In this document: one piece after another, positions 11,689 to 44,650 of the stretch | Numbering within the stretch: position 1 is the first letter of the stretch | Layout of the letters: every line of letters begins with the position of its first letter | Origin: a virus | Virus record (IMG/VR): IMGVR_UViG_3300022562_000520 | Span: 1-64,000 of that record | Length of the DNA stretch: 64,000 nucleotides | Strand: one strand, 5' to 3' | The notes under the pieces: generated by a model | The model's input: the letters and a program-made list of their open reading frames with translations, nothing else | Told to the model about the DNA's origin: nothing | Database searches by the model: none | Made by a program: the position numbers and the translations under genes

Positions 11689-13194
11689 TTAAACTACCGG
11701 CTTACCTGTTGTCATATCGATCCAGAAAGATGGACTTCCACCACGACCAAAACACATTGAACCTGTTGGTGCTGGTGAACCAAAGCCTGTTGCATCTATA
11801 ACATAGATAAAACCGCCTGCAACCACCACTGGTAATGTTCCAACTGTGTATGTTGGTGCTACTGGAACGCCAGTGAATACAGGACTATCTTCAGGTGCTT
11901 GCGCAACCCAAGATGATCCATTATATGCTTTTACACGACTTACAGTAGTATCGTAAACTGTACCACCTGTTACACCAACAGGTAAATTAACAGGCGAGCC
12001 TGCATAATTTGGTTGTACGAACTGTGCTTTCGCACCAGATAATGTTAATACACCATTGTCTGACATTAACATGTAGAATGTTTCTATTGGTGAACCGTGC
12101 GCGGCTTGGCCAATCATAACACTGCTTGCTGTTGTGTTTGTAAGATTATAACCAATAGTAGTTGCATAATCCAAGTTTGTCTGCGTTGAATATCCTAATG
12201 CTATCGAATTAGTTCCACGACAATCAGCGTTTGCACCTATTGCTATTCCACCAACGCGCTCTCCTTGTGTTCCACCTACAATCGCATTAGCACCAAGCGC
12301 AAGAGAATCTTGCGATTTGGCTGTTGCATATGCACCAAAGGCAGTTGCACGTTGTTTATCTGTTGCAGTTAATGGCGAACCTACTGGCGATCCAGTGAAT
12401 CCAGAAGCGATTGCTTGGTAACCAACAGCGGTACAATCGGTTGCATATGCATTTGTATATGCACCAATTGCTATAGTACCTGTTAATGAACTTCCAGCAT
12501 CTTTGGTATAACCTGCTTGTGCAGCTTCACCGATTGCAATATTTTCGTAACCGCGTGTTATTGCTTGGTAACCAATGGCAATAGAAGCCCAACCACCAAA
12601 AGCTTCAACCGAATCGGCAACGGCTTCTTGACCAATAGCGATGCTATAATCACCGCGTGCGTGTGCCACTTCACCGATAGAAATAGTGCCATTTATTGTT
12701 GGCGAACCAAGACCTGCGGCGTTACCTATCGAAATAGAACCAACACCCGGTGCTACTGGCGCGGTAGCAAAATCTGCGCCATTGTTCGCATATATCCAAT
12801 GACCTTCTTGTTTTAATGCTAATTCGCCTGCAACTTTAGATGCAGACCAAACTTCTGTAGTACTTACAGGACTTCCTGTATCATCTATTATAAAATGAAG
12901 TGTGCTATTAGCGATGTGTGTATCAATTTGTTCATGTGTATTCGCCGGAGCGGGACTACCCAAGTGTGCATCGTAATCAGTTTTAAGTACTGAAACATCC
13001 ACGCCGTCTACATTGCCAACATTTGTTATAGCATTTCCACCCATATCCAAATCGGCTAACATGGCCGTTGGACTACCGCCATTACGATTAAGATATTGCG
13101 TATTTAATGATGCTTTTGCTGTTGCATCATTAACGATTTCATTCGCAACGTCTGGTATATTAAGCTGCTTGCCTAGTACTTTTTCTTGAGCCAT
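11689..13194 (-). CDS. fibre/adhesin-like virion protein with YadA-type head repeats
   Basis: Repeated SIAIG/TAVG/ALG beta-roll motifs; 10 GSP motifs. Confidence 0.8.
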   Translation of the reverse strand: MAQEKVLGKQLNIPDVANEIVNDATAKASLNTQYLNRNGGSPTAMLADLDMGGNAITNVGNVDGVDVSVLKTDYDAHLGSPAPANTHEQIDTHIANSTLHFIIDDTGSPVSTTEVWSASKVAGELALKQEGHWIYANNGADFATAPVAPGVGSISIGNAAGLGSPTINGTISIGEVAHARGDYSIAIGQEAVADSVEAFGGWASIAIGYQAITRGYENIAIGEAAQAGYTKDAGSSLTGTIAIGAYTNAYATDCTAVGYQAIASGFTGSPVGSPLTATDKQRATAFGAYATAKSQDSLALGANAIVGGTQGERVGGIAIGANADCRGTNSIALGYSTQTNLDYATTIGYNLTNTTASSVMIGQAAHGSPIETFYMLMSDNGVLTLSGAKAQFVQPNYAGSPVNLPVGVTGGTVYDTTVSRVKAYNGSSWVAQAPEDSPVFTGVPVAPTYTVGTLPVVVAGGFIYVIDATGFGSPAPTGSMCFGRGGSPSFWIDMTTGKPVV

Positions 13195-13205
13195 TGTTTA
13201 CTCCC

Positions 13206-16200
13206 TTATTCTATATAACCAAAGCCGTAAATTTCTACATCTGCAAGGGCAGTCGGTTCACTACCAGCATTAAATGTAATTGTAATAGTGCCAGTACCAT
13301 AACCCGAAACCTGATATGCTTTACTTGCACCTTCGATTTGTTTAATACCATTAACAAATATTTGTATTGCTGCATGGCCTACTGATGGTGTTGGTATATT
13401 CCATGAAAGGATATAAGCACCTGGACTTCCAGCTGGTGCAGAAACAAGCGTGTAAAGTGGTTGCGCGACAGATGTACCAACTTTTGCGAGTGGTAATTCA
13501 GTTCCATCTACACCAGCTTTAAACGTTTCTAATGTATTATCCCAAACAAGAACAGCATTTGCTGCAAGTGGTGAACCGCCACCACGAACAATAGTAATAC
13601 CAGAACCCGTACTACCGGATGTTGCACCTGTATAGTTTCTGTTAAGCGTGATATTATTATCGTCTATATTTAAGTTAGTAGCATCGATTGTTGTAGTTGT
13701 ACCGTTAACTATAAGGTCACCATTAACCGTTACTGTTGAACTAAAAACAGTGGAATCACTAAAAGTTTTAACACCATTGATGGATTCTGCGATACTTCCC
13801 TGTGTACGTACAAAATCAGTTATAACTGAAGGGGCTTGGTTTGCCCATACACCAGCAACGCGTTTTAAGAAATCACCATTAGCTATACCAGCATATGCGA
13901 CATCCTGCATCTCATCTAAGTTGTTTACATTAAGTTCAGCCGTAACTGCGGTAGAAAAATCAGTAATATTTGCGGCAACGTGCGTATGAACTGCTGCTGC
14001 GAATGATGCTGCATTTGAACCACTATCTGTTAAGTTGCCTGAACCGTCAAGACCTGCAAAATTGCCTGCAACTGCACCTGAAACTTTATCGGCCTTCGTT
14101 GTATCAATCTTATTAGCTGTCCATAAATCGGCAACTGTAGTACCAGCATCGTTTACTGCAACACCTGCGTCTTCCATATCACCGTTGGCAGCAATTCTAA
14201 GAATATTACCAACTACATTCGGACTACCACCAACAAAGTTAGCTTTAAGGTTTAACTGTGCTTGTATATTTGATGTTACACCATTTAAATGGTTAACTTC
14301 TGTTGCCATTACAGCAGGGCTACCAAGTACTATAGCATCTAAAAATGCATTTTGGTCTGCTGTCATGTGGAATACTGTTGGGCTTCCAGTGTCTACTGCG
14401 TGTGCATGTAATGCCGCTTGTATAGCGGAGGTTTGTGCATCAACATATTCTTTTGAAGAAGCACCAGTAGCAGAAGGTACGGTTGGTAAACCAAGAACTT
14501 CACCGCCGCCTGAGAACGTAAGGTTAGCAGCGCTGTCCATTGCATCACCTGCACGGCCAATTTTGCTATCTATTTGTACTTGTACGTTTGACGTTACACC
14601 ATTAAGAAAATTGATTTCGGCTGCCATAGTAGCAGGGCTGCCAACTACAATCGCATCTAAAAATGCATTTTGGTCTGCTGTCATGTGGAATACTGTTGGG
14701 CTTCCAGTGTCTACTGCGTGTGCATGTAATGCTGCCTGAACTGCGTCAACATATTCTTTTGATGCGGCAGCAGTAGCGGAAGGTATAGCTGGTAAACCAA
14801 GAACTTCACCGCCACCTGAGAATGTAAGGTTAGCAGCGCTATCCATCGCATCGCCAGCGCGACCGATTTTGCTATCTATTTGTGGTTGAATTAACGATGT
14901 AACACCGTTAAGGTAGCCAACTTCAGTAGCTAATGTTGGAGGGCTTCCAACCATTATCGCATCTAAGAAAGCATTCTGTGCTGCTGACATGTGGAATAAT
15001 GATGGTGGGCTTCCAGTTTCTGCCATATGTTGTGCTAAGTCAAGTTGAACGGAAAGTGAAGAAACTATTGGTGTTGCACTACCTTCAACGCCAAGTTCCC
15101 ATTGTTTTGCACTTTCATCCCATTGAATAATAGCATCTGGTAAATTAGATGCAGGACTTCCGCCAACACCACGTGAAATTCGAATACCTGCCGTACCTGT
15201 ACCATTAGCAGCAAGATTAGCAGTATCACCATAGTTAATATCTACGAAAGTGTCTTTAACGTATAATTCGTTTGTTTCTATGCTTGTATTGGTACCTAAA
15301 ACTTGAAGATTTTGTTCAATTATAATACCATTTTTAAAAGTTTTAATACCATAAACATCTTGGTCAACACCCGTATTTGGGGAGCCGACATCGGCTTTTG
15401 CAACAACATGATCGGCATCTACAAAATCAGAAATGTCTGATTTGACAAGTGCACGGTTTACGAATTTTACACCATTATGAACTAATACGTGTTTATTTGC
15501 TGGTGCTAATGAAGTAGTATCAACATCATTAAGATCGTCTGTAACAAGAAATCTATTTACATAATTCGTGCCATTGTGAACTAACACATGTTTGTTGCCA
15601 GCACCACTGCTAGTTACATCAAGGATATCGTTAATATTTAAACTGATATCGCCCAAAACTGGTGCCAGTGTATTAACCGTTTCAACGTATCCTGCAACTG
15701 GAAAATCTGTAATTTCAGAAACTGTGTGGTTGTGCGAAATAGGTGCAAATAACGCGTTTGCTTCCGTTTCTGTATAATAACGCGAATCCAATACACCTGT
15801 ACTTGAAAGTTCATTTTCAGTATAATATCTGAAGTCTAGTGCACCACCATCTAATTGTGCTTTAGAATAAAAACTACCAGTGGAAACGCCAATTGGATTC
15901 CACGTTGCGCCGTCGTTAGTAAATTCCCAATGTGGTCCACTATCAGGACTTCCGACACTTTCTTCTACGAATCTTATTGATACTGTTCCACCCGGACGCG
16001 AGACTGCTATTCCAGCGCCAGTAATGGCTGGTAATGAGCCGCCATCTGTATTAAGTGTAAAATATTCATCTGCTGTACCAAAAGTTTCAGCTTTCGTTGC
16101 TAAACCATCATTAAGTTGGTCTACTGTTGCAAAAGCATCTAACTGTGATTGACTAACACTATCTGGTTGGATTTGCCACATAGGACGAAGATCGTAGATC

Positions 16201-16559
16201 ATATCGTTTGTGATAGAAAGTGTGGTATTACCAACAAAGATTGCCGCCAATGGTAAATAATCTTTGTATAAGGATGAATCTGGTAAATCTGGTGTGGCGC
16301 TTGCGATACCGTCTATTGGGGGATTGAGTTGGCCATTTGGTTTTAGTGCAATTATAACCCATTTTGCATCAGCTGTTGGATTAGTAATCGGTTGTGATGT
16401 GCCACCTGAATATTCCATATATTCGCCCGTAGCCGTCCAAAAACCACCAGCGGCGACTTTAACTGTCATGTTTGGCGATGCTTGTGCTTCAACTTTCAAT
16501 GGTGCAAAATATGCACCCAATTTTTTGGCGTTATCACCTTTTGGCGGAAGACTTATCAC
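13206..16559 (-). CDS. long fibre-like virion protein with internal repeats
   Basis: GTG 16559 after AAGGAG; EVNxLNGVTSNIQxQ and LDxRYYTExE fibre motifs; 12 GSP motifs. Confidence 0.8.
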   Translation of the reverse strand: MISLPPKGDNAKKLGAYFAPLKVEAQASPNMTVKVAAGGFWTATGEYMEYSGGTSQPITNPTADAKWVIIALKPNGQLNPPIDGIASATPDLPDSSLYKDYLPLAAIFVGNTTLSITNDMIYDLRPMWQIQPDSVSQSQLDAFATVDQLNDGLATKAETFGTADEYFTLNTDGGSLPAITGAGIAVSRPGGTVSIRFVEESVGSPDSGPHWEFTNDGATWNPIGVSTGSFYSKAQLDGGALDFRYYTENELSSTGVLDSRYYTETEANALFAPISHNHTVSEITDFPVAGYVETVNTLAPVLGDISLNINDILDVTSSGAGNKHVLVHNGTNYVNRFLVTDDLNDVDTTSLAPANKHVLVHNGVKFVNRALVKSDISDFVDADHVVAKADVGSPNTGVDQDVYGIKTFKNGIIIEQNLQVLGTNTSIETNELYVKDTFVDINYGDTANLAANGTGTAGIRISRGVGGSPASNLPDAIIQWDESAKQWELGVEGSATPIVSSLSVQLDLAQHMAETGSPPSLFHMSAAQNAFLDAIMVGSPPTLATEVGYLNGVTSLIQPQIDSKIGRAGDAMDSAANLTFSGGGEVLGLPAIPSATAAASKEYVDAVQAALHAHAVDTGSPTVFHMTADQNAFLDAIVVGSPATMAAEINFLNGVTSNVQVQIDSKIGRAGDAMDSAANLTFSGGGEVLGLPTVPSATGASSKEYVDAQTSAIQAALHAHAVDTGSPTVFHMTADQNAFLDAIVLGSPAVMATEVNHLNGVTSNIQAQLNLKANFVGGSPNVVGNILRIAANGDMEDAGVAVNDAGTTVADLWTANKIDTTKADKVSGAVAGNFAGLDGSGNLTDSGSNAASFAAAVHTHVAANITDFSTAVTAELNVNNLDEMQDVAYAGIANGDFLKRVAGVWANQAPSVITDFVRTQGSIAESINGVKTFSDSTVFSSTVTVNGDLIVNGTTTTIDATNLNIDDNNITLNRNYTGATSGSTGSGITIVRGGGSPLAANAVLVWDNTLETFKAGVDGTELPLAKVGTSVAQPLYTLVSAPAGSPGAYILSWNIPTPSVGHAAIQIFVNGIKQIEGASKAYQVSGYGTGTITITFNAGSEPTALADVEIYGFGYIE
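14270..15030 (-). repeat. intragenic tandem repeat, ~318-bp unit, ~2.5 copies
   Basis: 80 bp identical at 14335-14414 and 14653-14732; KIGRAGDAMDSAANLTFSGGGEVLGLP occurs twice; HMxAxQNAFLDAI occurs three times. Confidence 0.9.
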
Positions 16560-16607
16560 TCTGTTTCTCCTTAATAAATACAATTTTTAAACGTGGGTTA
16601 AGAATTA

Positions 16608-20231: not shown

Positions 20232-20441
20232 ATGGTATCAAAAGAAGAAGTAAGATTAGAATGTAAGTCTGCAAATTGTAAATCTTTAAATGATTGTTAT
20301 TTGGTCGCTGATAGAATAATTAACAAATATTCATTACTATATGGGAAGGTGCCTAATGGATTTACGTTGATGGCAGAAATTGTATATAGCGCTGCCAGGA
20401 ATTATTGGCATTCAAAAAATGAAAAAAATCTACACATCTAA
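20232..20441 (+). CDS. hypothetical protein
   Basis: 69-aa ORF directly after the polymerase. Confidence 0.55.
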   Translation: MVSKEEVRLECKSANCKSLNDCYLVADRIINKYSLLYGKVPNGFTLMAEIVYSAARNYWHSKNEKNLHI

Positions 20442-20823
20442 CTTTGCTAGAAATGGTAGCAACCCCAACGCCATTGCCATCAGTTCTATCATACCTGAAT
20501 GGTATAACGGCAAGGAAATGCGTGAACTACTAGCACCAAAATTCGATTTGGTTAAAAAAACCAAAGATGGTACATATAGTAAAGAAAAATATAAAGAAGA
20601 ATATCTTAAGCTACTTAATGATAGACAAATAGTTCCTGAAGAATTGATTGAACTTTTACCAGATGGGGCAATTCTTTTATGTTACGAAAAACCTGGAGGA
20701 TTTTGTCATAGAAGAATCCTTGCTGAATGGATTAAAGAACATATGGGGTTTGAAATACCAGAATGGAAAAGTGAAAAAGAAATGGCTAAAGATAAAATAG
20801 TTGACAGTATATTAGATTTTTAG
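20419..20823 (+). CDS. DUF488-like protein
   Basis: IYTSNF, LAP, LLCYEKPGGFCHRRILAEW; TAG stop. Confidence 0.75.
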   Translation: MKKIYTSNFARNGSNPNAIAISSIIPEWYNGKEMRELLAPKFDLVKKTKDGTYSKEKYKEEYLKLLNDRQIVPEELIELLPDGAILLCYEKPGGFCHRRILAEWIKEHMGFEIPEWKSEKEMAKDKIVDSILDF

Positions 20824-23483: not shown

Positions 23484-23798
23484 ATGAGTTCAGCAGTGGC
23501 AAGGATAGGTGATCCAATTTCCTGTGGAGATACCATAGCCCAAGGTAGCGGTGACGTATTTGTTAATAATATACCGGCCGTAAGATTGGGGGATATGACT
23601 ATAGGACATACACCCCCAGGGCACACCCTATATCCACCTACGCCAATTATTAATGGTTCGGGATCTGTTTTTGTTAATAATCTCCCACTGGCGCGTTTTG
23701 GCGATGCCATTGCTACACATACTGATCCTGGTCATCCATCATCACATCCACACGCAGGAACTATTAGTGTTGGTTCTAGTGATGTCTTTTCGGGGTAA
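23484..23798 (+). CDS. PAAR spike-tip protein (gp5.4-like)
   Basis: VARIGD, GSGDVFVNNIPAVRLGD, GSGSVFVNNLPLARFGD repeats. Confidence 0.93.
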   Translation: MSSAVARIGDPISCGDTIAQGSGDVFVNNIPAVRLGDMTIGHTPPGHTLYPPTPIINGSGSVFVNNLPLARFGDAIATHTDPGHPSSHPHAGTISVGSSDVFSG

Positions 23799-23801: not shown

Positions 23802-24725
23802 ATGGGCGTTTGTGTACCTAAACAAAATTATTGCTATGAAAGTACTAACGGGGTAAAAGGATTTATACCAGATTTTACCGCAGGAACAGAAATCTGTGTA
23901 TTACCAGAATTTAATGAATATCGTGCTAGAAATATATTAGGCGGCGAACTATTTAGGAGTGTAAACGGTGGTACTAGTGCCAACAATATATCAATAACTT
24001 GTAGTTTTAAATATTGGAATGGTAGTACATGGGTTGATACAACCGAATCTACATATGCTGCTGCACGCGATGCATTATATACTACACCCACAATTAATAA
24101 TACTACTTTTTTTATCCAAGTAACATTAACAGTTGATGACGGTATTAATACCCCCGATATCTACACGTCTTGTCAATATCAAGTTTATTACGCTGGTGCT
24201 GGATCACCATTGACGGGTGCATGGGAGTGGAAACGTAATGCAGTTCACGATGAAAGTTATTTGCCTTCACTACCATCATCATATCCTGATAATGTTGATT
24301 ATACTGTAGGTTTTCGTAACCAATTAGTATCTAGTACAATCGCAACACTTCCTGATATTGACATTCAAACAATAGGTATTGGTTCACCAGATGGCTGGGA
24401 TTCTTCCATTTACGATCCAGACCATATAGCGAGTTTCACAAATTCTAATCTAACAGGTGGCAGCGGACCACCAGACTTACCTACTAGTGCTATACGAACT
24501 GGCCCAGCTATATCTATGATTTATATCCGTAATAGTGATGCAACCGTCGATGGTTCAATACTTACTATTGATACCGTTAAGGTGTGGGATAGTTATGTAG
24601 GTACTGGTGCGTGGGTTTCACGTACAGGTTCACCGACATCTGATGGAAATAGATGTATAGATAATAGCGATCCGCTCAATCCTGTTTATTCTGATGGCTC
24701 ACCTCAATTACCTATTACTTGTTAA
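23802..24725 (+). CDS. hypothetical, probably virion-associated protein
   Basis: 307 aa, S/T/G/P-rich, 4 GSP motifs, starts 3 nt after PAAR. Confidence 0.7.
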   Translation: MGVCVPKQNYCYESTNGVKGFIPDFTAGTEICVLPEFNEYRARNILGGELFRSVNGGTSANNISITCSFKYWNGSTWVDTTESTYAAARDALYTTPTINNTTFFIQVTLTVDDGINTPDIYTSCQYQVYYAGAGSPLTGAWEWKRNAVHDESYLPSLPSSYPDNVDYTVGFRNQLVSSTIATLPDIDIQTIGIGSPDGWDSSIYDPDHIASFTNSNLTGGSGPPDLPTSAIRTGPAISMIYIRNSDATVDGSILTIDTVKVWDSYVGTGAWVSRTGSPTSDGNRCIDNSDPLNPVYSDGSPQLPITC

Positions 24726-32900: not shown

Positions 32901-35900
32901 CTTCTATTTTTGTCAATTTATCTTGTCTATAAACGCGCAATTGGTCTGTAGAAATTCTGTCCCCATTCTGATTAAATATTAGTTGTGTAGATCTTACATC
33001 CGCAGATGGACCTGTAATAACATTAGAAACTATACCAACAGTTGGTTCAAACCATATGGCGTTTCTAAATGGGTTAATTTCAAAATCTTTAATAGATGCT
33101 CTAAATTCTCTTGGCTTAGAAACAGAAAGATTACCAACACCTGAAATTGATAGTATATCAATTGCGATACCATCTTTAGCGCCTTGTTTTGTGGCTGATA
33201 ATCTAAAAGTATCAAGGGTATCACGTATTACATAATAACGGATACCTTGTGACAATGGTGTTGGGAAAACGTTATTTGAAGAAATAACGATAACTGGATC
33301 GCCTGTTATAAATGTTCTATTTGTGTCAACAAATGTAAATGTATCCGTTGTTATATCAACAGTTACAGGATATCTATCATTAAGTTGTTCTCTGAGTACG
33401 CGCTGCGAATACGCATATGTGATAAAGCGCTCTGTTTCTGTTTGCCAGTTAAGAATTTTTCCTGATGTTGGATCTTGTAATGTATGATCATTATTAACTT
33501 TCCAGCCGATATCATCAAGATATGAAGCATATCCTTGAATTATATTAACCAGCGTTTGCATTCCTTGAATTTCTTGAGGTGTATTAATTTCTAAAATGTT
33601 TGTTTTATCAAGTGCGTAAATTCTCCAATTCGTATTAGATCTGGCACCAGAATCTGCAAGGAATGTACTTACAATTTGACCAACAAAATGATCACTGCGA
33701 CCAGCCGATGTTATATCTATAGGAATTCCAGCTATAGCATTATTGTATGTTTCAGCTACTTTAAATGTTGTATCAGAAAGGCGTATAATATAATACTTTG
33801 TTGTACCTAATATTGTATCTGTAGCTAATGGTATTGGCATAGTTTCAGCCGTAGAAAGATAGATGGTATCACCGGTTTCCCATGGTATAGTTCTATAATC
33901 AGCCTTAATTACACCAGAAATTTCTGCGTCTGGAATGTTATTACTAACAAAAATTGTAGTTAATTTGGTTGTAGTATCGTAAGATGAAAGTTCTATATCA
34001 TAGGTAGCATCATTTCCTATAGAACCTTGAATATCAAATTGACTTCCGGCAATAAGTGTGGATGTCTGATCCCCAGCTATAGTAAATGTCTTATTAAAAG
34101 TATCTAAATCCTTTATCTCCCAAGTATACAATGAACAAATATCCGTATCTGGATCGGCATAAAATTGATAATTATGCACATCATAATATTTTAAATTTCT
34201 ACTAATAGAAATATTAGTTTTAAGTTCAAATCTCCAATCAATATGATTATCATATCTTGCAAGATTATAAGGTACATTTGTTATTGATACTTTAAGTGCA
34301 TCTAACCAATAATCATTAATTCCAGGTGCGCGTTTAGCTACAATATTATAATCAAAATTAGAAACGTTTACATATCTGTGAGCAAATGTTAAAGATGGCG
34401 TATCAATAAAAGAGGCAAATTGATATGTTAATGGGGCTGTCCAACCAGTCCACATTTCTCTAAAATTAGAAAAGTTGGCATCATAACCAGAATATCTATT
34501 ATAGTTAACATACCATTGGTTCATACCATTGCTTTTATATTGTTGATTATCTACAACTTCACCATGAAAATCAACACGTGTATGACTTGCCGTATTTTTT
34601 ATACGCTTACTAACTTGTAATCCACCTATAGTAGTTAAATCAAAACCGAAAGCTAAGAAGGAAAAGCGCATAGGATCTATACGAAAAGCAACTGTAAGTT
34701 GATCATATAAAAATTGTGAAGAAACGCGCCATTCCCATTCTATATTACCAGCATCACCGAAAACATAGCTTGCATTTGGAGATATAACTTCCGTAGTATA
34801 ACTAGAAAATAATGAACGTACTAATACATCGTAATTTTGCGGAATACCATTAAATGCAGTTATATAATCCCAATATGGTGGAAATACATCATCTGGATTA
34901 TATGTAGTGGTACCGCCATCTGCACTAAGTGGACGATTGGAGATATTAACACTAAAATAATTAAACGTAGGCAAATCTGGAACAGATAAGCCAAGTAAAG
35001 TATCTTCGCTAGGTACACCGCTCATTCCAAGAACACCATTCGGATATGTTCTATTTGGTGGAATCACTCCTATACGAATATTTTCCCACATTCCATATGC
35101 TTGTAATATTTTTCCAGAAGGAATATCACTAGCTACTGACTGTTCTAATTTTATAGAAGTTATATTTGTAAGTGGATCATATAACAATCCATTTATAAAA
35201 TGATCTGTTGTATTAAATTCACCAACATCTATAGATTCTTCTACCGTTATAATAAATGTATTCAATGAATGACTTACACTTTTAATAGTAAATGATTTTA
35301 TAAGTATGTTGTATACTGGATTTATTGTACGTTCAGCTATAGAAAATACCATTCCAACTTGATATATGTCCGCAGCTGGATCTGGTGGAAGGTCTTCTAT
35401 AACAAAAGAGGCTGATCCTGCTGAACCTGGATTTATCGCTATTAAATCATCACGCGATGCTATAGTATATACACCCGCATGTGTTACAGATTCATCAACT
35501 GTAAAAGATTGTCCTGAATAGAAATTTGTATGAAAATCACCGGCAATTCCAAATTGGCCATAAGTGATAGGACTTCCCAACAGTGATTGACCATCAAATC
35601 CATCATTATTAGAAAGGACAATATCAAACCCATGTTTGTATTTCCACTTTCTATCACCCCATTGTTCTACGTCATCATTAAGATATTCTTCATCCCACCA
35701 ATCTGGTTTATCAATATATCCCTGTAAAACCCAAGGTTCTGCATGTGGATATGGGGTTCCATAAATTTTAGTATATAAATCTCTCCAATCGCCACCGGAT
35801 TCTGAACCATCATTAAGGTTATTGGGTTGTGATATTGTTATTAGGCTAGGTAAAACACCAGAATATATTATACCACGGGTGCCATCCAATACATCACCTT

Positions 35901-38900
35901 CAACGAAAATACGTGTAGTATCATTCCCACTATCATAATATGTTGTAGGTGTAGTAGGTGTAGATAGTAATGTTTTCCAAGTACCATCGTTTACTGAAGA
36001 ATTCTTAATATAGAAGGTAATTTGTGAATTACATGCACCGCTATCTGTGCATGGATCAAAAGTTGCAACGTAATCACCTGCTACTAAGAAAGAATTAGTA
36101 AGACCATCAGCTTCCAATATCGTTAATCCACCACCAATAGATGAATTTTTATAGTTCCATGTAAATGCATCTGATGCATTATATTCTGTATTTTTATATG
36201 GTGATGTAATTTCATTTTGTGAAACATAATCTAAGAATGCTTCTTCTAAATATTGTTGATATTTAACAGGGTTATCGTTAGCTAATTGTTCAAAATCATA
36301 AGCAAGATTTGGAAATGTAGGAACATTGTCATATAAACGCGTTTCAATTTCATAGATAGTATCCCCCAATAAAGTATCAAGGTTTACTTCTTGCCATGCA
36401 GAAATTGTTGCGGTTGTTACATCATTTGGATCTGTTCCATTATGCAATCTTCCACCACCCAATAATAGACCTGTTACTTCATTCCATTCTACATTACCCT
36501 GATAATCAGTTTCTTTTATACGTAAAACTTCTAAACTTGGTGTCAAATCCATCCACAACGTTCCATCTGGAAGTGATGATGATGGTTGATCTTCACCAGA
36601 TTCTGCCACAATATAACGATATAATATGTTAGGTTCACCAGATTTAATTTGATACCAATAAACACCTTCTCTGTTTGATATAGCATCAAAGCTTGTTAAA
36701 AATTCGGAAATATTGTCGGGTGGAGACATTGATGATGTTACACCAATACCTCTATCAATAGTTCTAGGATCTGGTGAAGATACTACTAATTGAGAAATAA
36801 TATCTTTTGTAGCTTGTGTTAATTTATAACTATGACGATGGCCATCATGATGAACAACATCATTAAGGGACAAATTATCATCGACTATTCTATTAGGAGT
36901 CATAGCATTGACAAGATTAATATATGGAAGTGTGGCAATCCAATTTCTAATACCAATATCATTACTACCTTCTACATCTATAAAAGTTGTAGAATCTCCA
37001 TATACAAATGATGCTTGATCATTTAATTCGTGTTCTGTTATAACATTAGTAGCAACATAAGAAGATAAATCTAGGATGTTTGCTATTTCTAAATTTGTAA
37101 GTAAAGATATAGCATTTTCACGATAAATTTCTTTAACTGAATTTAGTAACTTTTCATATTGATCGTGGGCAAATTCTATTAATGTTCTTGGTGTAACAGT
37201 ATCAATAAAAATGGATGATAGTAAATTATCAAAACCATAGTTAAATTCTTTAATAGTTCCACCATATCCATAATTTACGTCATTAATAGGTAATAAATTA
37301 AACATACCATCTTTAGAGCCTGTATAACCAGGAATCAATGGTTGTTCTTCAATAATTGTTGAAAAATGTGTTAATAATTCGCGGGAATTTAAATATTTGC
37401 GATTTTCATGTAAATGATTATAATATAATGGATCTGGTATTTCCCAATCACCGATCCACGTGCCTGTAGAAGAAAGATGGTTAATCTGACTTTGGAACCA
37501 TTCTTGTGTTGCCTGTGTAATGGCTTCTGCTTCTATAGTATATGTTCCTTTAAGTATTAATTCAGCAGCACGAGCTGTGATATAATCATCCTTCTCTGTA
37601 TTATATTCTTCTAATGAACGTACATCCCAATCTACTTTTTCTGGAATATACATTTCATCGTTTAATCCACCTTTCCAAATGGTTTGTAAATTTATATCCG
37701 TTACATAGTTATCAAATTTTTCAATTTCTACCCATATATTACCAGATACAAATCTTCTATATAATTTATCTAATACAGGATTATACCAATATAATCCATC
37801 AATAGCACGTAAACGAGAGTCTGGTTCTACTTCACTAACTATAGCTTTAGTATAGTGTTCTGACATTTCTGTCTTATCGCTCCATTCTACACCTCTCCAA
37901 AAATATACAACCTGTGTATCAGGATTATACCAATAATCTTCTTCTTTATTAGCATAATCACGATAGGCATATAAAACACCGTCATCTTCTTCTAGTAAAA
38001 ATTGGTCAAATTCATATATGTCATTGACTGAATCATATACTATACGAAATCCAGTATTAACATTAATTTCATATTCCGAGGATGTTCTATATCCAAAAAT
38101 TGGATTAGCTTTATATGCTGGCGTTCCATCAACATTAAATATATCAAATAACGGATATTGATTAGTTCTAGTTTTTATCTGTTCTACTTTACGATAATTA
38201 ATTAAACTTATAGCAGAATCACCAACTAAATCATAAGTTTCATCACTTTCTACCATTCTAACTTTATTTAAATGACTACCCAATTCATCAATAGAAGAAG
38301 CACCTACTTCAATAGCAACATTTAATCCAGCATCAACTGGGTTAAAAAATTCTATACCAACTACATAAACAGTTATACCATTTTTATTAGAAGAAAAGTC
38401 AGGATCAGCATCAGGTTGAATTGGTGATGTGATATTTGATATATCACCGCTTATTGTAGCACCTGGTGGAATTCCTGGACTACCGCTGACACGTATTCTA
38501 TTTGAATTAGGTACAGTTGGTGGTATAACTTGAAAATCCATAGTTCCAAAATTGCTATTTCCAGATACACGAATTGTATCACCAGTATTAAAATATTGTG
38601 AGTAATTTCCATCAACTATAAATTCATTCGTATCATAATCTATGGATATAATATCTAAAACTACTTCACCCAATTCATCATATGTTCCAAATTGGCGTTC
38701 TATATCAGTTCCAGCTGCATTAGTAAGGTAAACACGTATATCATCAAAACCATATAATGCTTGACGATTCAATGGACGGGTGTGTCCTACTTCTATACTA
38801 TCAGTTAGATAAAATGTTGACCAACTATTTCCCGGTGAACCGACCTTTGTTACGAAATATTTTTGTTGATATGCCGATGTTGTATATTCATAAACTTCAC

Positions 38901-41019
38901 TTTGTGGTGATCCACCATCATATCCAAGTATTGGTGTTGCAGAATCTGATATAGCAATATATGGATTATCCACTTGGTGGGGGGCTGGTGTAGCATCGTC
39001 TGCACCAAGAAATAACCAATGCACTCCATAACCTTGCCACACATCATCCATAACGGTTTTAAAAGGATAGATTTCATATGTATTAGGTATTAAGTTAATA
39101 AGATCACCGGTTGAGTTTGGTTTTACTGTAAAAGTAACAAACGTTCTATATGGATGTGTACTAGGGCTTGACTTGTATTCAGAATAATCAACCGTATATA
39201 TTGTAGGTGATGTTCCATTACTAATATAAACCTGTTTACCAGCCACGAAGTAATCTGTTAAATCACCATAACGTGTATCAAATATAACTGTTTTATTATT
39301 AATATCTACACTACTTTCAAGCTCCCACCATGTAATTGGTGCAATTTCTATTGAAGGCGGTTTAATATCTGTAGCGGAGAATATATCATCTACTTCGCTT
39401 CGATATGACCAGTTGTATAATATTCTTGTCCATTCATTTAATTCTAAATCCCAATCGTATTCAATAATTGGTTGTGTGGCTCGTCTGACAGATGCGTAAT
39501 TTGTAATATCATTTTTATGTACCCATTTATTTTGCGAAATCCACTGATCCATGGCTTCTATTCTTGGTCTTATATCACATGCTTCAGTAAGATCCCATAA
39601 GGCAAATCCTGTTGTAGCATCGAGTAATAAGTTAAAATTATTCCAAAGAATCTTCCAACCTATTGTAGTATCATACTGATAAAGTCTGTTATTAGTGGAA
39701 TCGTGCCATAATTCATCTTGTGAGCCAGCACCAACTGGTGGGCCTGCATTGGTGATACTATCAATGAAGTTTGTGTGGTCTGAAATACCATCACTTACAG
39801 GATTACCAAAACTATCTATAACATCACCCCATAATGGAATGTTTGGGTTATCATCCCACAAATTTCCTTCATCCCATCCGCCCAATATACCACATTGACA
39901 GTTCTTTTCAGCTATATAAACTGAATACTGTTCATTTAATGATAATTCACCACCCAAAACCGTATTATCCGTGACCGCGTTTTTAATAGTTATAATTGTT
40001 TGTAAATTATCAATATCTGCTTCCGAACTGACGATTTCAATATATGAGTTATTTAATTCAAGGTTGGCCAGATTTCGTATAAAGATAATAAAACCTTCTT
40101 TAAATAATTCTGAATAGTCACCGCTTTCTAAACCGGATGATGTTACTACTTCTGGTGAACCTTCATATGTAAGAGTATAATTTGACCCGATTACAATTTT
40201 ATCAAACCTGCGAAGTTTTAATGTTCCTATGGAGTTCTCATTAGTGACTAGATCATTAACGGTAAATATAGTTAAATTGTTAACCCCATCATATACTGGT
40301 AAACTATTAACCTGATGTGCACCATTATTATACGCCGTTCCTTCAATAGTAAAGTATTCATTTTCTGATAAGCTACTGGTTGCATCACCAATAACACTAA
40401 TTTCATTTCCTGAAAAATCTATATTAGAGATTGTATATGATGGTAAGCTGTTTATGTTATCGGCGGGTAACATTTCAACAAGAGGGAAAGTATCACCATA
40501 TTGATTCATTATGCTTTCCCACCATGTTACTCTTGAAGTAGCTGTGGAGCATTTGTTACGAACGGTTATATATTGTGGAAGTTCATTAGTTTCAGAATCC
40601 CAATAATAATCACGATAGTTTATTATTTTATTAATATCGATTGGTGGTGCCCAGTTGAATTTTTGGGTTGCACCCCAATTAGCAAAATCTTCAAGGTCTA
40701 CACCCAATCTTTCTAATTCGTGTTGGATATCTTTCCATGAAGCCATGTGTTCTATGGAACCAATTTTATCATATAGGATAGGTTGTAACTGGAAGGCTTG
40801 ACGATGAACGTCTTTTTCTTTTATTTGACGTTTAACTATAGCGGAGCTATTTCCTTTACCAATATAACCCGCGACCTTATCTACTTCCTGTTTAGATAGG
40901 TATCTATTAAACAAGTTGCTGAATAGGCTGATATTTGTATCAGACTGATATGGCTCTGGCAGCAAATGTACCAAATCCATAAAAGCTTTTGTATAATCTG
41001 ATTTATTATTGTGCGACAC
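29929..41019 (-). CDS. giant (3696 aa) baseplate wedge-like structural protein
   Basis: Uninterrupted 11-kb ORF in the baseplate operon; GTG start after GGAG; 11 GSP motifs. Confidence 0.8.
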   Translation of the reverse strand: MSHNNKSDYTKAFMDLVHLLPEPYQSDTNISLFSNLFNRYLSKQEVDKVAGYIGKGNSSAIVKRQIKEKDVHRQAFQLQPILYDKIGSIEHMASWKDIQHELERLGVDLEDFANWGATQKFNWAPPIDINKIINYRDYYWDSETNELPQYITVRNKCSTATSRVTWWESIMNQYGDTFPLVEMLPADNINSLPSYTISNIDFSGNEISVIGDATSSLSENEYFTIEGTAYNNGAHQVNSLPVYDGVNNLTIFTVNDLVTNENSIGTLKLRRFDKIVIGSNYTLTYEGSPEVVTSSGLESGDYSELFKEGFIIFIRNLANLELNNSYIEIVSSEADIDNLQTIITIKNAVTDNTVLGGELSLNEQYSVYIAEKNCQCGILGGWDEGNLWDDNPNIPLWGDVIDSFGNPVSDGISDHTNFIDSITNAGPPVGAGSQDELWHDSTNNRLYQYDTTIGWKILWNNFNLLLDATTGFALWDLTEACDIRPRIEAMDQWISQNKWVHKNDITNYASVRRATQPIIEYDWDLELNEWTRILYNWSYRSEVDDIFSATDIKPPSIEIAPITWWELESSVDINNKTVIFDTRYGDLTDYFVAGKQVYISNGTSPTIYTVDYSEYKSSPSTHPYRTFVTFTVKPNSTGDLINLIPNTYEIYPFKTVMDDVWQGYGVHWLFLGADDATPAPHQVDNPYIAISDSATPILGYDGGSPQSEVYEYTTSAYQQKYFVTKVGSPGNSWSTFYLTDSIEVGHTRPLNRQALYGFDDIRVYLTNAAGTDIERQFGTYDELGEVVLDIISIDYDTNEFIVDGNYSQYFNTGDTIRVSGNSNFGTMDFQVIPPTVPNSNRIRVSGSPGIPPGATISGDISNITSPIQPDADPDFSSNKNGITVYVVGIEFFNPVDAGLNVAIEVGASSIDELGSHLNKVRMVESDETYDLVGDSAISLINYRKVEQIKTRTNQYPLFDIFNVDGTPAYKANPIFGYRTSSEYEINVNTGFRIVYDSVNDIYEFDQFLLEEDDGVLYAYRDYANKEEDYWYNPDTQVVYFWRGVEWSDKTEMSEHYTKAIVSEVEPDSRLRAIDGLYWYNPVLDKLYRRFVSGNIWVEIEKFDNYVTDINLQTIWKGGLNDEMYIPEKVDWDVRSLEEYNTEKDDYITARAAELILKGTYTIEAEAITQATQEWFQSQINHLSSTGTWIGDWEIPDPLYYNHLHENRKYLNSRELLTHFSTIIEEQPLIPGYTGSKDGMFNLLPINDVNYGYGGTIKEFNYGFDNLLSSIFIDTVTPRTLIEFAHDQYEKLLNSVKEIYRENAISLLTNLEIANILDLSSYVATNVITEHELNDQASFVYGDSTTFIDVEGSNDIGIRNWIATLPYINLVNAMTPNRIVDDNLSLNDVVHHDGHRHSYKLTQATKDIISQLVVSSPDPRTIDRGIGVTSSMSPPDNISEFLTSFDAISNREGVYWYQIKSGEPNILYRYIVAESGEDQPSSSLPDGTLWMDLTPSLEVLRIKETDYQGNVEWNEVTGLLLGGGRLHNGTDPNDVTTATISAWQEVNLDTLLGDTIYEIETRLYDNVPTFPNLAYDFEQLANDNPVKYQQYLEEAFLDYVSQNEITSPYKNTEYNASDAFTWNYKNSSIGGGLTILEADGLTNSFLVAGDYVATFDPCTDSGACNSQITFYIKNSSVNDGTWKTLLSTPTTPTTYYDSGNDTTRIFVEGDVLDGTRGIIYSGVLPSLITISQPNNLNDGSESGGDWRDLYTKIYGTPYPHAEPWVLQGYIDKPDWWDEEYLNDDVEQWGDRKWKYKHGFDIVLSNNDGFDGQSLLGSPITYGQFGIAGDFHTNFYSGQSFTVDESVTHAGVYTIASRDDLIAINPGSAGSASFVIEDLPPDPAADIYQVGMVFSIAERTINPVYNILIKSFTIKSVSHSLNTFIITVEESIDVGEFNTTDHFINGLLYDPLTNITSIKLEQSVASDIPSGKILQAYGMWENIRIGVIPPNRTYPNGVLGMSGVPSEDTLLGLSVPDLPTFNYFSVNISNRPLSADGGTTTYNPDDVFPPYWDYITAFNGIPQNYDVLVRSLFSSYTTEVISPNASYVFGDAGNIEWEWRVSSQFLYDQLTVAFRIDPMRFSFLAFGFDLTTIGGLQVSKRIKNTASHTRVDFHGEVVDNQQYKSNGMNQWYVNYNRYSGYDANFSNFREMWTGWTAPLTYQFASFIDTPSLTFAHRYVNVSNFDYNIVAKRAPGINDYWLDALKVSITNVPYNLARYDNHIDWRFELKTNISISRNLKYYDVHNYQFYADPDTDICSLYTWEIKDLDTFNKTFTIAGDQTSTLIAGSQFDIQGSIGNDATYDIELSSYDTTTKLTTIFVSNNIPDAEISGVIKADYRTIPWETGDTIYLSTAETMPIPLATDTILGTTKYYIIRLSDTTFKVAETYNNAIAGIPIDITSAGRSDHFVGQIVSTFLADSGARSNTNWRIYALDKTNILEINTPQEIQGMQTLVNIIQGYASYLDDIGWKVNNDHTLQDPTSGKILNWQTETERFITYAYSQRVLREQLNDRYPVTVDITTDTFTFVDTNRTFITGDPVIVISSNNVFPTPLSQGIRYYVIRDTLDTFRLSATKQGAKDGIAIDILSISGVGNLSVSKPREFRASIKDFEINPFRNAIWFEPTVGIVSNVITGPSADVRSTQLIFNQNGDRISTDQLRVYRQDKLTKIEVLDAVEGETLPLISDAYTRLHLGGLHLFTDAYEHVMVLNNYTSEDNLLYDPFIGLNVTKYEMLFNRQKEFTQRPNVGGYYLSTFFNQGANLNENIEASVENLRNAYDTYRTLETNLMTEYARNGLGYEGTKDYLSNLNLSNKSQFLFWRGQIQAKGSINAVTAYINSRRFIDAKVDDYWAVKVGSFGSTGEKEYPEMFVATADARSNELRLEFIDNETNESSVENTFTAIKMSNTDRWYNQPDQTKVLRDNGKVMYFDMKIKNKWNYGNSPTDFITNNGSSYIKHDLDADFVEVTQEFVDTGTTVTLTEGTHYNIINNNIIEWLEGTGGSPNTVNNVTIWGLRYNDDAQNPARIIDREAETQISPIQFWDPARGKHYTTAIHNIDLINENDPARYGVTSQTQNYVDIWKDGFVGTTWLNTENLDYVPYYSEQMFPDRTERFRNWGNLADWSNIEIYEWVESDVPPAEWDALAAIEEGDRTIEEHLRKAGTARKILLRKVGSDWVPAVNKFVELYTAIDGVLSGNNYTFTPSLVNFDSVIEGSPETTKYYANVYINGIIYEENADITSGYVVNDAFIKEADVIRFVQFVPTNQDDIDILLAGSPETYRQEYEYTQVPYYDTLGNLFYNYYFWVTNKGTKPRDKNRTMSIAEAQVQLASIPAAHMFFQNPQAESSITAETSLVLRRELTTVTGSPPSIGGSPPAITYYTDYNIAEGTNVYVEVNGIDLISTEGHFSFTAGTNVIVINAVPGSPNFPANNDEITITYTAVDSIPQKLPNRFTQAIIRGLQGIVNADNRYTIRFTRDFTLRDNLENDSLTNGSTDLKNLHEEWKIFRREQQFNIDRWQWDKITESIIGYTLADTTIRVPSYERELYDEKYGTDTRYGLGTGQAFVNGDLALRTILAYLIDPNIDFSPINIDSFFTENSFDTADNIIAAMDEIYNNFSYTHVNRIYFSVLHDAFTTKAKYPDIFKTSMISLHGIRPFQTSGIFDD

Positions 41020-41080: not shown

Positions 41081-44000
41081 TTATTGACGGATATTTTCCG
41101 GTGTAAATGACTGAACAATTTCAATGTTCTGCGTAGATATATCAGGTACAAAGATTTCATTTTCACGGGATTGAACTTGAAACAAATCACCAAACTGGTT
41201 TGTAGAAAAGGTTGGAACCAACACGATTGATTTTATTTCAGGACCAAGTGCGGCATGGATTGAAGCGGACAATTCGGTAAAAAAGAATGTACTACCAAAA
41301 TCCCAATCATCAATGTCAAAATAATCACGAATAACTTCAACGATTCTAACTTTAACTTCATTATCAGTTAAGTTACTGATTTCAGGGCGTATTACTTTAA
41401 ATGTAGCTTGTAATTCTGGAATTGCACGACTTCCAAAAAGTATTTTAAATAAACCAGTTTGTAATATTACCGTATCAGATATCATACGATTTTCAAGTAG
41501 GCTGTCATAGGCCGTTCTTAAATCTAATGGCGTTGGTGCATCTGGACTAATGTCAGTTTTATTTTCGAGCCAACGTGTAACACTTTCATAGTAGCCAGAA
41601 GTAATTATAAACATATCTATAATATTAGACGCAGCTGGATCTACTAAATGAAAACGCGGGGTTGTATAAAACCATGCAAAGTTCAAAGGATATCTTCCAT
41701 GTTCACGTCTATAAAGTCTATTGCGTTCAGAATTTAATAAATCAAGATACCATGCGGAACGAACAATAGCTGTATCCGTTACTGGAACCCATTCACTTGT
41801 TGAAGAATCGCGATTAAAATATACAAACTGCTTAGTACTAATTTGTATAGTCTGTCCTGCTGTAGTTCCATTTACGGTTAAATTTGTAAGTTCGGTACCT
41901 GTAACAGGTTCTATATTAGAAACGGTTCCATAAACAGTCGGGGAACCAAAATTCAATACCGGGGAACCACCAAAAGTTGGTAATAATTGGTCATGTGATA
42001 GTGGATCATTATATTGACCTATCGGAATAGTTGTATATCCTGGTGAGCCGCCTGTATAAACTGCGCCCGTACCATCGTTTAAAACACTATACGTACCATT
42101 ATAGTTACCATATGATGGATCTGTTGCACCATTTTGTATTCTTATTTTTGAACCTATTGGAAAATCTGCGGTAACATCACCTGATACTAAGACAGTATCT
42201 GGCGCTGATGGTGAACCTGGCATTGGTGAACCAATAGGGTTATTAATAATATTAACATCAATTATATCAAAAACAGGGTATAATCCCCAAGTTCCTATTG
42301 TGGCAGACCCATTGTCATAGTCAAAAACAGTACCATCGACGCTTACCAATACACTATCTGCTTCTGTACCATTTATAAAATATTGTGATGGTTTTATGAA
42401 AGTTACAGAAGTATAATCGTCTGTAGCTGCAAAAGTATCTGTAGAATATAATAATTCTAACTGGTCAATTTGATCTGGAATACCGTCATCATTAGTATCT
42501 GTTGGTATAACAAACAATCTACTATCATCTGGAACTCCAGCATTTGGAAGATTTTGAGCTACTAATTCTTGACCTAAAACGTTGTAAATTTTATTTTCAG
42601 TTAATACTGCATCCAAATTTCCATTTAAATTGGCGCGTAATATAACAATATTATCGTCATTAGAAGTTAATGTATTAAAGTTTATTACGCTTGACGTATT
42701 AGCATTTCTAAATTTAGTGCTAACGCTTTGCGCATTCATACGTTTAACTTGCCAACGTACTGTCCATCCTGATAAATTGCTTGCTGTAAATTGCGCTTCA
42801 ATTCTTATCATAAGACTTGAAGAAAATGGCAAGCCAGTTGATGGATTTATAGTTGTATTTGGTCCAACCGTCCAGTGTGGTATTTCAACGGTTGGGCTTC
42901 CAACAGCAGTTTGTGATTTAAAGTATAAATCTACCTGTGGGTTTGCTGACGTTGCTGCACTATTGAGTGCCGTTTCTATAAATGGTCTTTCTAAATCAAT
43001 ATCAAAAGTACAAGGTATTTGCCCAAGAATATTATAAAAATCACCACTACATAATAATGGTTCTACAAGATTGGTTATTACTTCATCCGCAGTTAATGCT
43101 AAATTTGAAATAGCAACGCCACCATTATTAATATCGTCTTCTACCCAAAATAATGCTAAATCTTCACCGAAAATTTTAACATCTTCATAGTATTCTTTAG
43201 GATCGTGCCACGCTATATACTTAGAATCACCAGCAAACGTTCTATTAACTGCTTGTAATTTCAATATAGAGGGGTCTTGTAACATAAAAGAATTATAGTC
43301 ACGGCCATTAACCATTCTATCCTGTGTATAATAAACAGATGGTGCAACCCTACGAATATGTTCAATATCTTCAGAAACCGAAGCATTTTGTAAAGAATTT
43401 ATTAATGAGAATGTAAACTTAAAAGTCTGTGTAGTATTTGTTAGGTCAAGATATGTAAATGATGCCGTTTGATCTACAACAGATGATTTTTGTATAATAC
43501 TATTACTGTTCGCAGAAATTCTGTACCAAATATCAAATTCACCAGAAGGTATATCTGAGAATTCCCCGTCACCAAAAATTAATCGTACTTGGTCATTATC
43601 TAATGTTTCAATTTCATATTTTTGACGATTTTTATCTGTATTAAAAATTATATTTTGCGCATTCGCCAAATCAACTTCGGTCCATTCACCATATCTACCA
43701 ATACCGTCTTCTAAGTGTGGCAATATATCTGCATATGGATTAGTTTCTACGATAACACGTGTACTTGGATCTACATTATTGAGCCAAACATCAGTTTCAT
43801 TAATATTGCTAACTAAAATATCGTGGGTTTGGTTTGGGGTAACACCATCGAAAGATTGGGTTACTAATTGTAATGTTCCTTGTTTTGTAAAGCAGAAAAA
43901 TCCTGTGGTATCTGAACCATCACCCAAACCATCTGAACCGTACAAAATTGAAAATTTGGCGTTTCTTTCGGGACGTTTTTCTACAGGCGAAGTTGATGTC

Positions 44001-44650
44001 AATGTAACAGGTACCAACTCCATTGGGAATGCTGTACCTGATGATGTTGCAGAATAGTTAAATGTTGAAACTCCACTACCCTTTAACGGTTGATTGTTCC
44101 AAGTATATAACTCAAACAATACGTCTTCTATCTGTACACGTTCATTCGGTGAAACGGTTCCAAAATCTTGTTCTAAAACACGATTCAATACAAGTAAAAA
44201 TTGTTCTTTCCAATCTGGATTATTTAAATCGTTCCAAACTATTTTGGTGTTAGCTAAATTTCTACCTTGCGAATCATTAACTTGTTCTGTAGTTTGAATA
44301 GATGTTATTTTAACTAAACCACGCGCAGCAATATTTCTTGATACTTTATAAGATATTAATTTTGCAAGACGAAGGATGGATTCTTTACGTTCAGCAGTAC
44401 TGATAAAGTTTTCGTGGGCATTTAAATCAAGTCTGTAAGAAATGATTTCACCAACGTATGCAAATATTTCAAGGATTGCTATAAATTCACTTGATTCAAT
44501 ATAATCGTTAAAATCTTCAGGAAAGTAAAGTTTTACATAATCTAAAAGACTTTCTTTGATTGTATTATAATCGAACGCCGAAAAGTTAACACGGGTAAAT
44601 ACCTCGTGTGCGCGTGTCCAAGCCTCCGCTCTAGATATTTCTATAGCCAT
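41081..44650 (-). CDS. baseplate wedge protein, T4 gp6-like
   Basis: DFNDYIESSE, ENFISTAERKESILRLA, FGDGEF, APSVYYTQDRMVNGRDY motifs; 6 GSP motifs in the central insertion. Confidence 0.85.
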   Translation of the reverse strand: MAIEISRAEAWTRAHEVFTRVNFSAFDYNTIKESLLDYVKLYFPEDFNDYIESSEFIAILEIFAYVGEIISYRLDLNAHENFISTAERKESILRLAKLISYKVSRNIAARGLVKITSIQTTEQVNDSQGRNLANTKIVWNDLNNPDWKEQFLLVLNRVLEQDFGTVSPNERVQIEDVLFELYTWNNQPLKGSGVSTFNYSATSSGTAFPMELVPVTLTSTSPVEKRPERNAKFSILYGSDGLGDGSDTTGFFCFTKQGTLQLVTQSFDGVTPNQTHDILVSNINETDVWLNNVDPSTRVIVETNPYADILPHLEDGIGRYGEWTEVDLANAQNIIFNTDKNRQKYEIETLDNDQVRLIFGDGEFSDIPSGEFDIWYRISANSNSIIQKSSVVDQTASFTYLDLTNTTQTFKFTFSLINSLQNASVSEDIEHIRRVAPSVYYTQDRMVNGRDYNSFMLQDPSILKLQAVNRTFAGDSKYIAWHDPKEYYEDVKIFGEDLALFWVEDDINNGGVAISNLALTADEVITNLVEPLLCSGDFYNILGQIPCTFDIDLERPFIETALNSAATSANPQVDLYFKSQTAVGSPTVEIPHWTVGPNTTINPSTGLPFSSSLMIRIEAQFTASNLSGWTVRWQVKRMNAQSVSTKFRNANTSSVINFNTLTSNDDNIVILRANLNGNLDAVLTENKIYNVLGQELVAQNLPNAGVPDDSRLFVIPTDTNDDGIPDQIDQLELLYSTDTFAATDDYTSVTFIKPSQYFINGTEADSVLVSVDGTVFDYDNGSATIGTWGLYPVFDIIDVNIINNPIGSPMPGSPSAPDTVLVSGDVTADFPIGSKIRIQNGATDPSYGNYNGTYSVLNDGTGAVYTGGSPGYTTIPIGQYNDPLSHDQLLPTFGGSPVLNFGSPTVYGTVSNIEPVTGTELTNLTVNGTTAGQTIQISTKQFVYFNRDSSTSEWVPVTDTAIVRSAWYLDLLNSERNRLYRREHGRYPLNFAWFYTTPRFHLVDPAASNIIDMFIITSGYYESVTRWLENKTDISPDAPTPLDLRTAYDSLLENRMISDTVILQTGLFKILFGSRAIPELQATFKVIRPEISNLTDNEVKVRIVEVIRDYFDIDDWDFGSTFFFTELSASIHAALGPEIKSIVLVPTFSTNQFGDLFQVQSRENEIFVPDISTQNIEIVQSFTPENIRQ

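Follow-up and report, generated by a model that had tools for sequence, protein, structure and literature searches.

Why does one tripeptide, Gly-Ser-Pro (GSP), recur throughout several virion proteins of a single phage? The question is raised by a 64,000-nucleotide stretch of viral DNA (hereafter the window; positions 1 to 64,000 of IMG/VR record IMGVR_UViG_3300022562_000520), which is part of a 100,293-bp viral contig (G000) from an uncultured jumbo myovirus. The nearest cultured relatives of this phage are the Xanthomonas phages XacN1 and Xoo-sp13, Stenotrophomonas phages and the Ralstonia phage RsoM2USA, with 39–45% identity in the DNA polymerase and 45–49% in gp6. An earlier note, made from the sequence alone, had counted 57 GSP copies in six window proteins and read them as sites for Ser O-glycosylation or another modification, or as binding sites for a decoration protein. 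We find that the observation is real and far beyond chance. Of its interpretation, selection on the peptide, location in loops and restriction to a lineage hold, while O-glycosylation by a phage enzyme finds no support. Our preferred reading, to which we give a little less than an even chance, is that GSP marks exposed loops of the virion's outermost proteins as a tag read in trans. The literature that we searched contains no paper on a Gly-Ser-Pro motif in phages.

Enrichment and specificity of the tripeptide

On recount, the six proteins (Table 1) carry 10, 12, 4, 14, 11 and 6 copies, exactly the earlier figures, against 2.3 expected from their composition (about 3 had been estimated). In 5000 within-protein shuffles of the six carriers the total averaged 2.33 (s.d. 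1.5) and never exceeded 10, so that the enrichment survives a composition-matched control. No other window open reading frame (ORF) of at least 100 amino acids (aa) has a single copy. The polymerase, helicase, spike, hub, sheath, tube-region and tape-measure-like proteins have none, and the major capsid protein has one. Outside the window, too, there are GSP-rich proteins, among them a fibre of 975 aa (contig 89180-92107; 10 copies). Over the whole contig GSP is by far the top tripeptide, with 75 copies against about 6.7 expected (6.6–6.8; z = 26; next tripeptide z = 7); a first-order Markov expectation is 22.6. It also ranks first genome-wide in G000 and in the related viral genomes G001, G002, G004 and G018 (z = 6–26), and in the outer baseplate and fibre proteins of the window phage and its close relatives the enrichment over chance is about 20-fold.

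The enrichment lies in the peptide. Ser codons at GSP sites are AGY in 20 of 71 cases, against a background of 30%; since codons vary and both Ser families are used near their background share, a DNA repeat is excluded and selection acts on the peptide, as the earlier note had argued. The codons quoted there at 24381, 24696, 11739 and 14387 and the doubled copies are correct.

All three letters are required. When 47 GSP-rich proteins of five genomes (48,110 aa) were pooled, 261 copies of GSP were counted where 15 would be expected. Its one-letter neighbours do not follow (observed/expected): GTP 26/19, GAP 12/14, GDP 10/14 and GNP 19/12 at the second position, and ASP 12/13, TSP 22/19, SSP 16/15 and DSP 6/13 at the first, with every GSx tripeptide at expectation. 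Thr is not accepted in place of Ser. Flanking preferences are mild, with G, T, S or V favoured just before the tripeptide and A or L just after it. Hydrophobic, beta-like residues are found at positions -4 to -8, charged residues are scarce nearby and Arg is depleted. The sites are single or at most doubled and have diverse flanks, unlike low-complexity Pro/Thr or Gly/Ser linker runs; true PT-rich runs of that kind are carried by XacN1 fibres. In non-virion phage proteins GSP is neither enriched nor avoided.

Position, turnover and distribution of the sites

Alignments place the sites in poorly conserved loops rich in indels. In the gp6-like protein, five of the six copies fall within an insertion of about 100 aa (about residues 800–910) found in none of the 24 other aligned orthologues, and the sixth lies in a small insertion common to three relatives. 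The giant protein has its copies in indel-rich segments, and the same columns in GSP-poor orthologues hold gaps or unrelated residues. Seven of its 11 copies are kept in the G001 protein, which is 64% identical; none is present in the orthologues from XacN1, Xoo-sp13 and RsoM2USA, whose gp6 proteins likewise lack the motif. In the protein that follows the PAAR gene, three of four copies are kept in a G001 orthologue of only 32% identity. Between G000 and G001, 23 of 36 copies are conserved, compared with 5.0 expected from local identity, although identity around GSP sites is 0.35 as opposed to 0.64 around average tripeptides. We conclude that GSP is a short linear motif under purifying selection within otherwise free loops.

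The 1029-aa protein founds a family of which almost all members are GSP-rich. Nearly all of its 47 homologues in a large protein collection have 4–21 copies, against 0.3–0.9 expected. In a 45-member alignment many copies are column-conserved, reference residue 935 being GSP in 35 of 44 sequences, while five homologues and the orthologue from the related contig G003 have at most two, their columns being filled by other residues including GT. In an AlphaFold model built from the 45-sequence alignment, with a mean pLDDT of 76, the chain forms a series of small beta domains. When secondary structure was scored on this model, 14 of 14 copies lay in coil, seven of them no more than two residues past the end of a strand or helix. 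A global fold search with the model returned weak matches only, none of them convincing. These alignments and the model agree with the earlier description of the copies as loop insertions or variable loops.

GSP is dispensable for the folds that carry it: orthologues in XacN1, Xoo-sp13, RsoM2USA, G003 and the related contig G022 have none or about the number expected. As had been supposed, the sites are lineage-specific and not conserved in all homologues. GSP-rich relatives (observed/expected) are G001 with 87/15.6, G004 with 46/10.4, G002 with 23/7.1 and G018 with 73/9.2; not enriched are G003 (13/14.9), G022 (21/19.2), G023 (23/15.9), G026 (11/8.0) and the whole genome of XacN1 (20/24). Two of these contigs are complete, G001 with 363 kb and G022 with 350 kb and terminal repeats. 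A locus collection anchored on the DNA polymerase missed the close relatives. The 398-aa virion-module protein, which contains no GSP, was the anchor with which 80 related loci were gathered, and it also served as a negative control within the genome. In the tree of this anchor protein, GSP-rich lineages that are positive for the gene prkA (discussed below) and GSP-poor, PrkA-negative lineages are interleaved. The gp6 tree agrees, with G003 nested among GSP-rich phages. Unrelated carrier folds gained the motif in parallel within the same genomes.

Could the tripeptide simply be a piece of local structure? GSP might be a loop-start or strand-stop motif with no reader, Gly giving freedom, Ser capping the turn (an ST- or Asx-Pro turn) and Pro ending the strand, which spread by descent and convergent drift in one lineage. 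The coil location of all modelled sites, half of them directly past a strand or helix, is what such a turn predicts; the beta-like upstream flanks with few charged residues fit as well, as do the many column-conserved sites within one protein family. In Asx/ST-Pro turns, however, D, N, S and T are interchangeable, and none of the structural equivalents (GTP, GDP, GNP, GAP, SSP and TSP) is enriched in the counts given above. Orthologues of the same fold do without the motif, unrelated folds have gained it in parallel, and the motif comes and goes with a distant gene cluster. A comparable pattern is known from T-even gp38 adhesins, in which conserved glycine-rich motifs frame hypervariable segments. 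Both systems show short conserved islands set among the variable loops of receptor-binding proteins, but the gp38 motifs are structural elements of one fold in one protein, whereas GSP is spread over many unrelated proteins whose orthologues can do without it. We therefore hold a purely structural origin to be unlikely, if the strongest of the alternatives.

The strict specificity and the conservation within variable surroundings are instead what a sequon or a docking site would produce, in keeping with the earlier note. On our preferred reading, that of a tag read in trans, selection would place and keep the Ser-centred GSP in exposed loops of the baseplate periphery, the giant wedge protein and the fibres, within one group of XacN1-related jumbo phages, and GSP would be a modification site on Ser or a docking site and not a requirement of the fold. 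The data show the enrichment, its specificity for all three letters, the location in loops, conservation amid variable surroundings, restriction to one lineage and co-occurrence with a gene trio (discussed below); we infer that something may bind or modify GSP, and what chemistry would be involved. A strict three-residue tag on many unrelated outer virion proteins would imply a virion-wide recognition or modification system of a kind not described for phages, which could affect host recognition, stability or immune evasion in giant phages. Even without any chemistry, GSP is a clean marker of exposed loops and of one jumbo-phage lineage.

Candidate readers and chemistries

The leading candidate for a reader is a phage-borne trio of genes: PrkA (PF08298 and PF06798), an AAA+ ATPase with a kinase-like C-terminal domain, YeaH/DUF444 (vWA) and SpoVR/YcgB. 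The trio is present, at 67–81% identity, in G001, G002, G004 and G018 and on the contigs of loci L440, L485 and L477, all seven of which are GSP-rich. It thus occurs on every GSP-rich contig that can be judged (7/7) and on none of the sufficiently complete GSP-poor relatives. We did not find it in GSP-poor G003, G022, G023 and G026 (whole-contig GSP counts) or in G020 and G021 (locus-level counts), nor on 50 further related contigs, including three complete GSP-poor genomes, nor in G005 to G009 or XacN1. The two genes found on either side of the trio in other genomes are direct neighbours in G003 and G023, so that its absence there is real and does not come from an assembly gap.

A comparison of gene content points to the same genes. 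We took the 91 G001 genes that are common to at least two GSP-rich contigs and asked which have no tblastn match in four GSP-poor in-group genomes. Thirteen follow this GSP-rich-only pattern, and apart from the trio these thirteen include no enzyme-like set. It is a new observation that, among these relatives, PrkA, YeaH and SpoVR alone of the enzyme-like genes co-vary with the trait. Among the genes for which the earlier note had proposed a search were kinases. PrkA tracks the trait among relatives, but its kinase activity is disputed (PMC13001217); a small kinase-like ORF, described further below, recurs in GSP-poor XacN1.

How might the trio act? It may phosphorylate the Ser of [G/T/S]-G-S-P-[A/L] loops. 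Alternatively, it may be an AAA+/vWA assembly machine that acts on tagged fibre proteins. Phosphorylation would call to mind the proline-directed type, in which CMGC kinases act on S/T-P sites: in both cases Ser precedes Pro in loops, and here PrkA, whose annotation is that of a Ser protein kinase, accompanies the motif. It would differ in that Thr-Pro is not enriched, Gly at -1 is obligatory and PrkA is unrelated to CMGC kinases. The bacterial PrkA/YeaG-YeaH-YcgB(SpoVR) stress and sporulation module has the same genes in the same order as the phage trio, at 55–80% identity. No substrate motif is known for this module, the literature searched reports none for E. coli YeaG, and connecting the module with a virion motif is a new and purely correlative step. 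In Bacillus the module affects spore integuments, likewise a large protein shell built in the cytoplasm, and B. anthracis PrkA is needed for integument formation (PMC13001217).

Several findings weigh against a trans-acting reader of this kind, and against the trio in particular. The truncated first ORF of the window contig is an orthologue of the gene that directly flanks the trio in G001, G002 and G004; the contig therefore breaks exactly where PrkA is expected and is not among the seven. Several other GSP-rich contigs are too short for a verdict. In four phages at a greater distance (G010, G011, G012 and RsoM2USA) the trio is present without GSP enrichment, so PrkA is not sufficient for it; the RsoM2USA paper lists ORF28 as SpoVR and ORF30 as PrkA (PMC8504454). 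The association amounts to about three to four phylogenetically independent contrasts on the anchor tree, and it could stem from a shared host or from linked inheritance. The conservation of PrkA (60–80% identity) suggests a general function, and in vitro the kinase and protease activities of the B. anthracis protein were negligible (PMC13001217). Finally, a promiscuous cytoplasmic enzyme might cause avoidance of GSP in non-virion proteins, which is not seen. We conclude that the trio leads the candidates, and that GSP as its substrate or recognition motif is a doubtful but testable proposition. If it is true, this would be the first defined target motif for the PrkA/YeaG family, with a group of jumbo phages using a widespread bacterial module to phosphorylate the exposed loops of their own fibre and baseplate proteins, or to remodel them by AAA+/vWA action. 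The co-distribution in any case offers a testable hypothesis for a module whose biochemical function has been unclear for decades.

Known sequons give a measure for a tag of this size. N-glycosylation uses N-X-S/T, and O-glycosylation in Bacteroidota uses D-(S/T)-(A/I/L/V/M/T). Like these, GSP consists of three residues including a hydroxyl or amide acceptor; it is scattered over the exposed loops of many unrelated proteins and is kept by selection on the peptide while positions turn over between relatives. Unlike them, it has Gly at -1 and Pro at +1 of Ser and does not accept Thr. The Asp that precedes the acceptor in Bacteroidota is replaced by an obligatory Gly, DSP being depleted. We identified no transferase for GSP, and its carriers are virion proteins assembled in the cytoplasm. 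Nor does it resemble the formylglycine motif (C/S)-x-P-x-R of sulfatase maturation by the radical-SAM enzyme anSME, given that the Pro of GSP is at +1 and Arg is depleted.

A host factor could take the place of a phage-borne reader: GSP might be a sequon for a host-encoded cytoplasmic modification (glycosylation, phosphorylation or another), or an adaptation to the host surface. GSP-rich phages would then have a group of hosts in common, and PrkA would co-occur only for its usefulness there. In favour of this, the complete GSP-rich genome G001 yielded no common transferase, the trait is distributed among close relatives as patchily as a host range, and PrkA-bearing phages of other groups lack the enrichment. 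Against it, non-virion phage proteins neither accumulate nor avoid the motif, and no host system with a GSP motif is known to us. We consider a host origin less probable again than a structural one.

Ser O-glycosylation by a phage-encoded glycosyltransferase, the main idea of the earlier note, fares worse. The carriers lie on the outside of the virion, and glycosylation of virions has a precedent in mycobacteriophages. According to Freeman et al. (2023), phage-encoded glycosyltransferases reportedly carry out this modification. The two cases would share a modification of exposed virion proteins limited to some lineages. In mycobacteriophages, however, capsid and tail-tube proteins are modified on C-terminal extensions rich in Ser and Thr, whereas GSP forms isolated strict tripeptides on baseplate and fibre proteins. 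PF00535 (GT2) and PF00534 (GT1) had no match in complete G001, nor in G002, G004 and G018, other glycosyltransferase families not having been searched, and none was found among the window ORFs scanned. A P4H-type oxygenase or prolyl hydroxylase is likewise missing from complete G001, a single oxygenase occurring in G018 only. G001 does have genes for CTP_transf_3 (KdsB-like, of the CMP-sugar synthetase type), for DAHP_synth_1 (KdsA-like) and for a sulfotransferase beside its fibre genes, but they have no homologue on other GSP-rich contigs and no sugar island surrounds them. In addition, Thr is not accepted, and XacN1 has glycosyltransferases beside its fibre genes yet no GSP enrichment. We judge this route very unlikely.

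Weakest of all, and scarcely probable, is the idea that a small phage protein (decoration, cement or chaperone) docks at GSP: three small ORFs (window 26530-26787, contig 87211-87657 and contig 88434-88673) are found by BLAST only in GSP-rich genomes and lie beside GSP-rich genes, but small fast-evolving ORFs are easily missed by BLAST, these have no family, fold or feature match, three residues make a very short epitope for specific docking, and no decoration-protein partner was identified.

Carrier proteins, rejected candidates and neighbouring genes

The carriers and the other window features named in the text are collected in Table 1.

Table 1. Carriers of GSP and other features of the window
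Feature	Position	Strand	Details
Truncated first ORF of the contig	2..211	-	Orthologue of the gene directly flanking the trio in G001, G002 and G004
Fibre-like protein with YadA-head-type repeats	11689..13194	-	501 aa; 10 GSP; PF05658, E 1.9e-12
Fibre-like protein	13206..16583	-	1125 aa; 12 GSP; weak PHROG virion structural matches
DUF488 gene after the DNA polymerase	20380..20823	+	Tested for co-occurrence with GSP enrichment
Protein directly after the PAAR gene (23484-23798)	23802..24725	+	307 aa; 4 GSP
Conserved virion-module protein without GSP	25301..26497	-	398 aa; 42% identical to XacN1 ORF329
Multi-domain beta protein of repeated small domains	26823..29912	-	1029 aa; 14 GSP
Giant baseplate-wedge/virion protein	29929..41019	-	3696 aa; 11 GSP
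gp6-like baseplate wedge protein	41081..44662	-	1193 aa; 6 GSP; phrog_10646, E 3.5e-263

Possible TTG starts slightly upstream of those first assigned put the beginnings of two carrier genes at 16583 and 44662. We found no domain or module common to the six carriers, and those other than the gp6-like, giant, YadA-head and post-PAAR proteins have no family match. In the 1125-aa fibre-like protein, six of the 12 copies lie within three internal repeats of about 105 aa, and the Ser codons are mostly AGY. The repeats of the 1029-aa protein are small beta domains with the signature F-x-V-x-G-D ... N-D-G-x-Y-T-V, one copy of which also occurs in the giant protein (29929-41019; about 32% identity over 60 aa).

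Further genes were considered as readers and set aside. The small kinase-like ORF (contig 83681-84328; L082:1581-2228, minus strand) encodes 215 aa with a Gly-rich loop, a Lys motif and D-x-x-x-x-N and D-L-G-like motifs, the motifs of a minimal protein-kinase-like fold; sequence searches of Pfam and PDB gave no match, and the G001 copy is 65% identical. A copy of 50% identity in GSP-poor XacN1 speaks against it as a specific reader. The DUF488 gene matched the trait perfectly in ten genomes and failed on the 80 anchor loci, where GSP-rich loci without it and GSP-poor loci with it were found. The fibre cluster of G001 (213041-220904; L093:13041-20904, minus strand) contains three tandem radical-SAM/SPASM genes and a fourth CxxxCxxC protein of 523 aa, and the adjoining 551-aa fibre ends in a CxCxCxC (Cys-Thr) repeat. 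Related radical-SAM genes on 79 other viral contigs have neighbours whose proteins are enriched in CTC, CNC, CNY or TCQ; these loci are enriched in Cys tripeptides and not in GSP, and the genes were rejected as readers. They look like a separate system that works on Cys repeats in virion proteins, possibly by thioether cross-linking.

About 8 kb from the PrkA cluster, G001 carries two tandem 106-aa paralogues (236003-236649; L094:16003-16649), which BLAST finds only in GSP-rich G001, G002, G004 and G018 and which have no family or usable Atlas match. Immediately upstream of the fibre genes in the window, between the genes of a PD-(D/E)XK nuclease and an SLT-domain protein, lies a gene (8622-9518) for a protein of 298 aa whose domain is PF05618, 'putative ATP-dependent zinc protease'.

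XacN1 fibre proteins have long mucin-like Pro/Thr runs (TPT 325 times, z = 43; for example record 124048-133104 and 235607-237637; L131-L150), and glycosyltransferase and carbamoyltransferase genes adjoin the giant wedge gene of this phage; the runs may represent a different coating strategy in a GSP-poor sister clade. GSP-rich G004 carries collagen-like GPQ/PQG/QGP repeats of about 34 triplets (L123-L130). G001 encodes, at 140704-145267 (L090:704-5267) and elsewhere, Cas5fv-helical, Cas3 (HD and helicase) and Csy4/Cas6f-type proteins, which by their sequences make up a predicted phage-borne CRISPR-Cas set of a type I-F variant.

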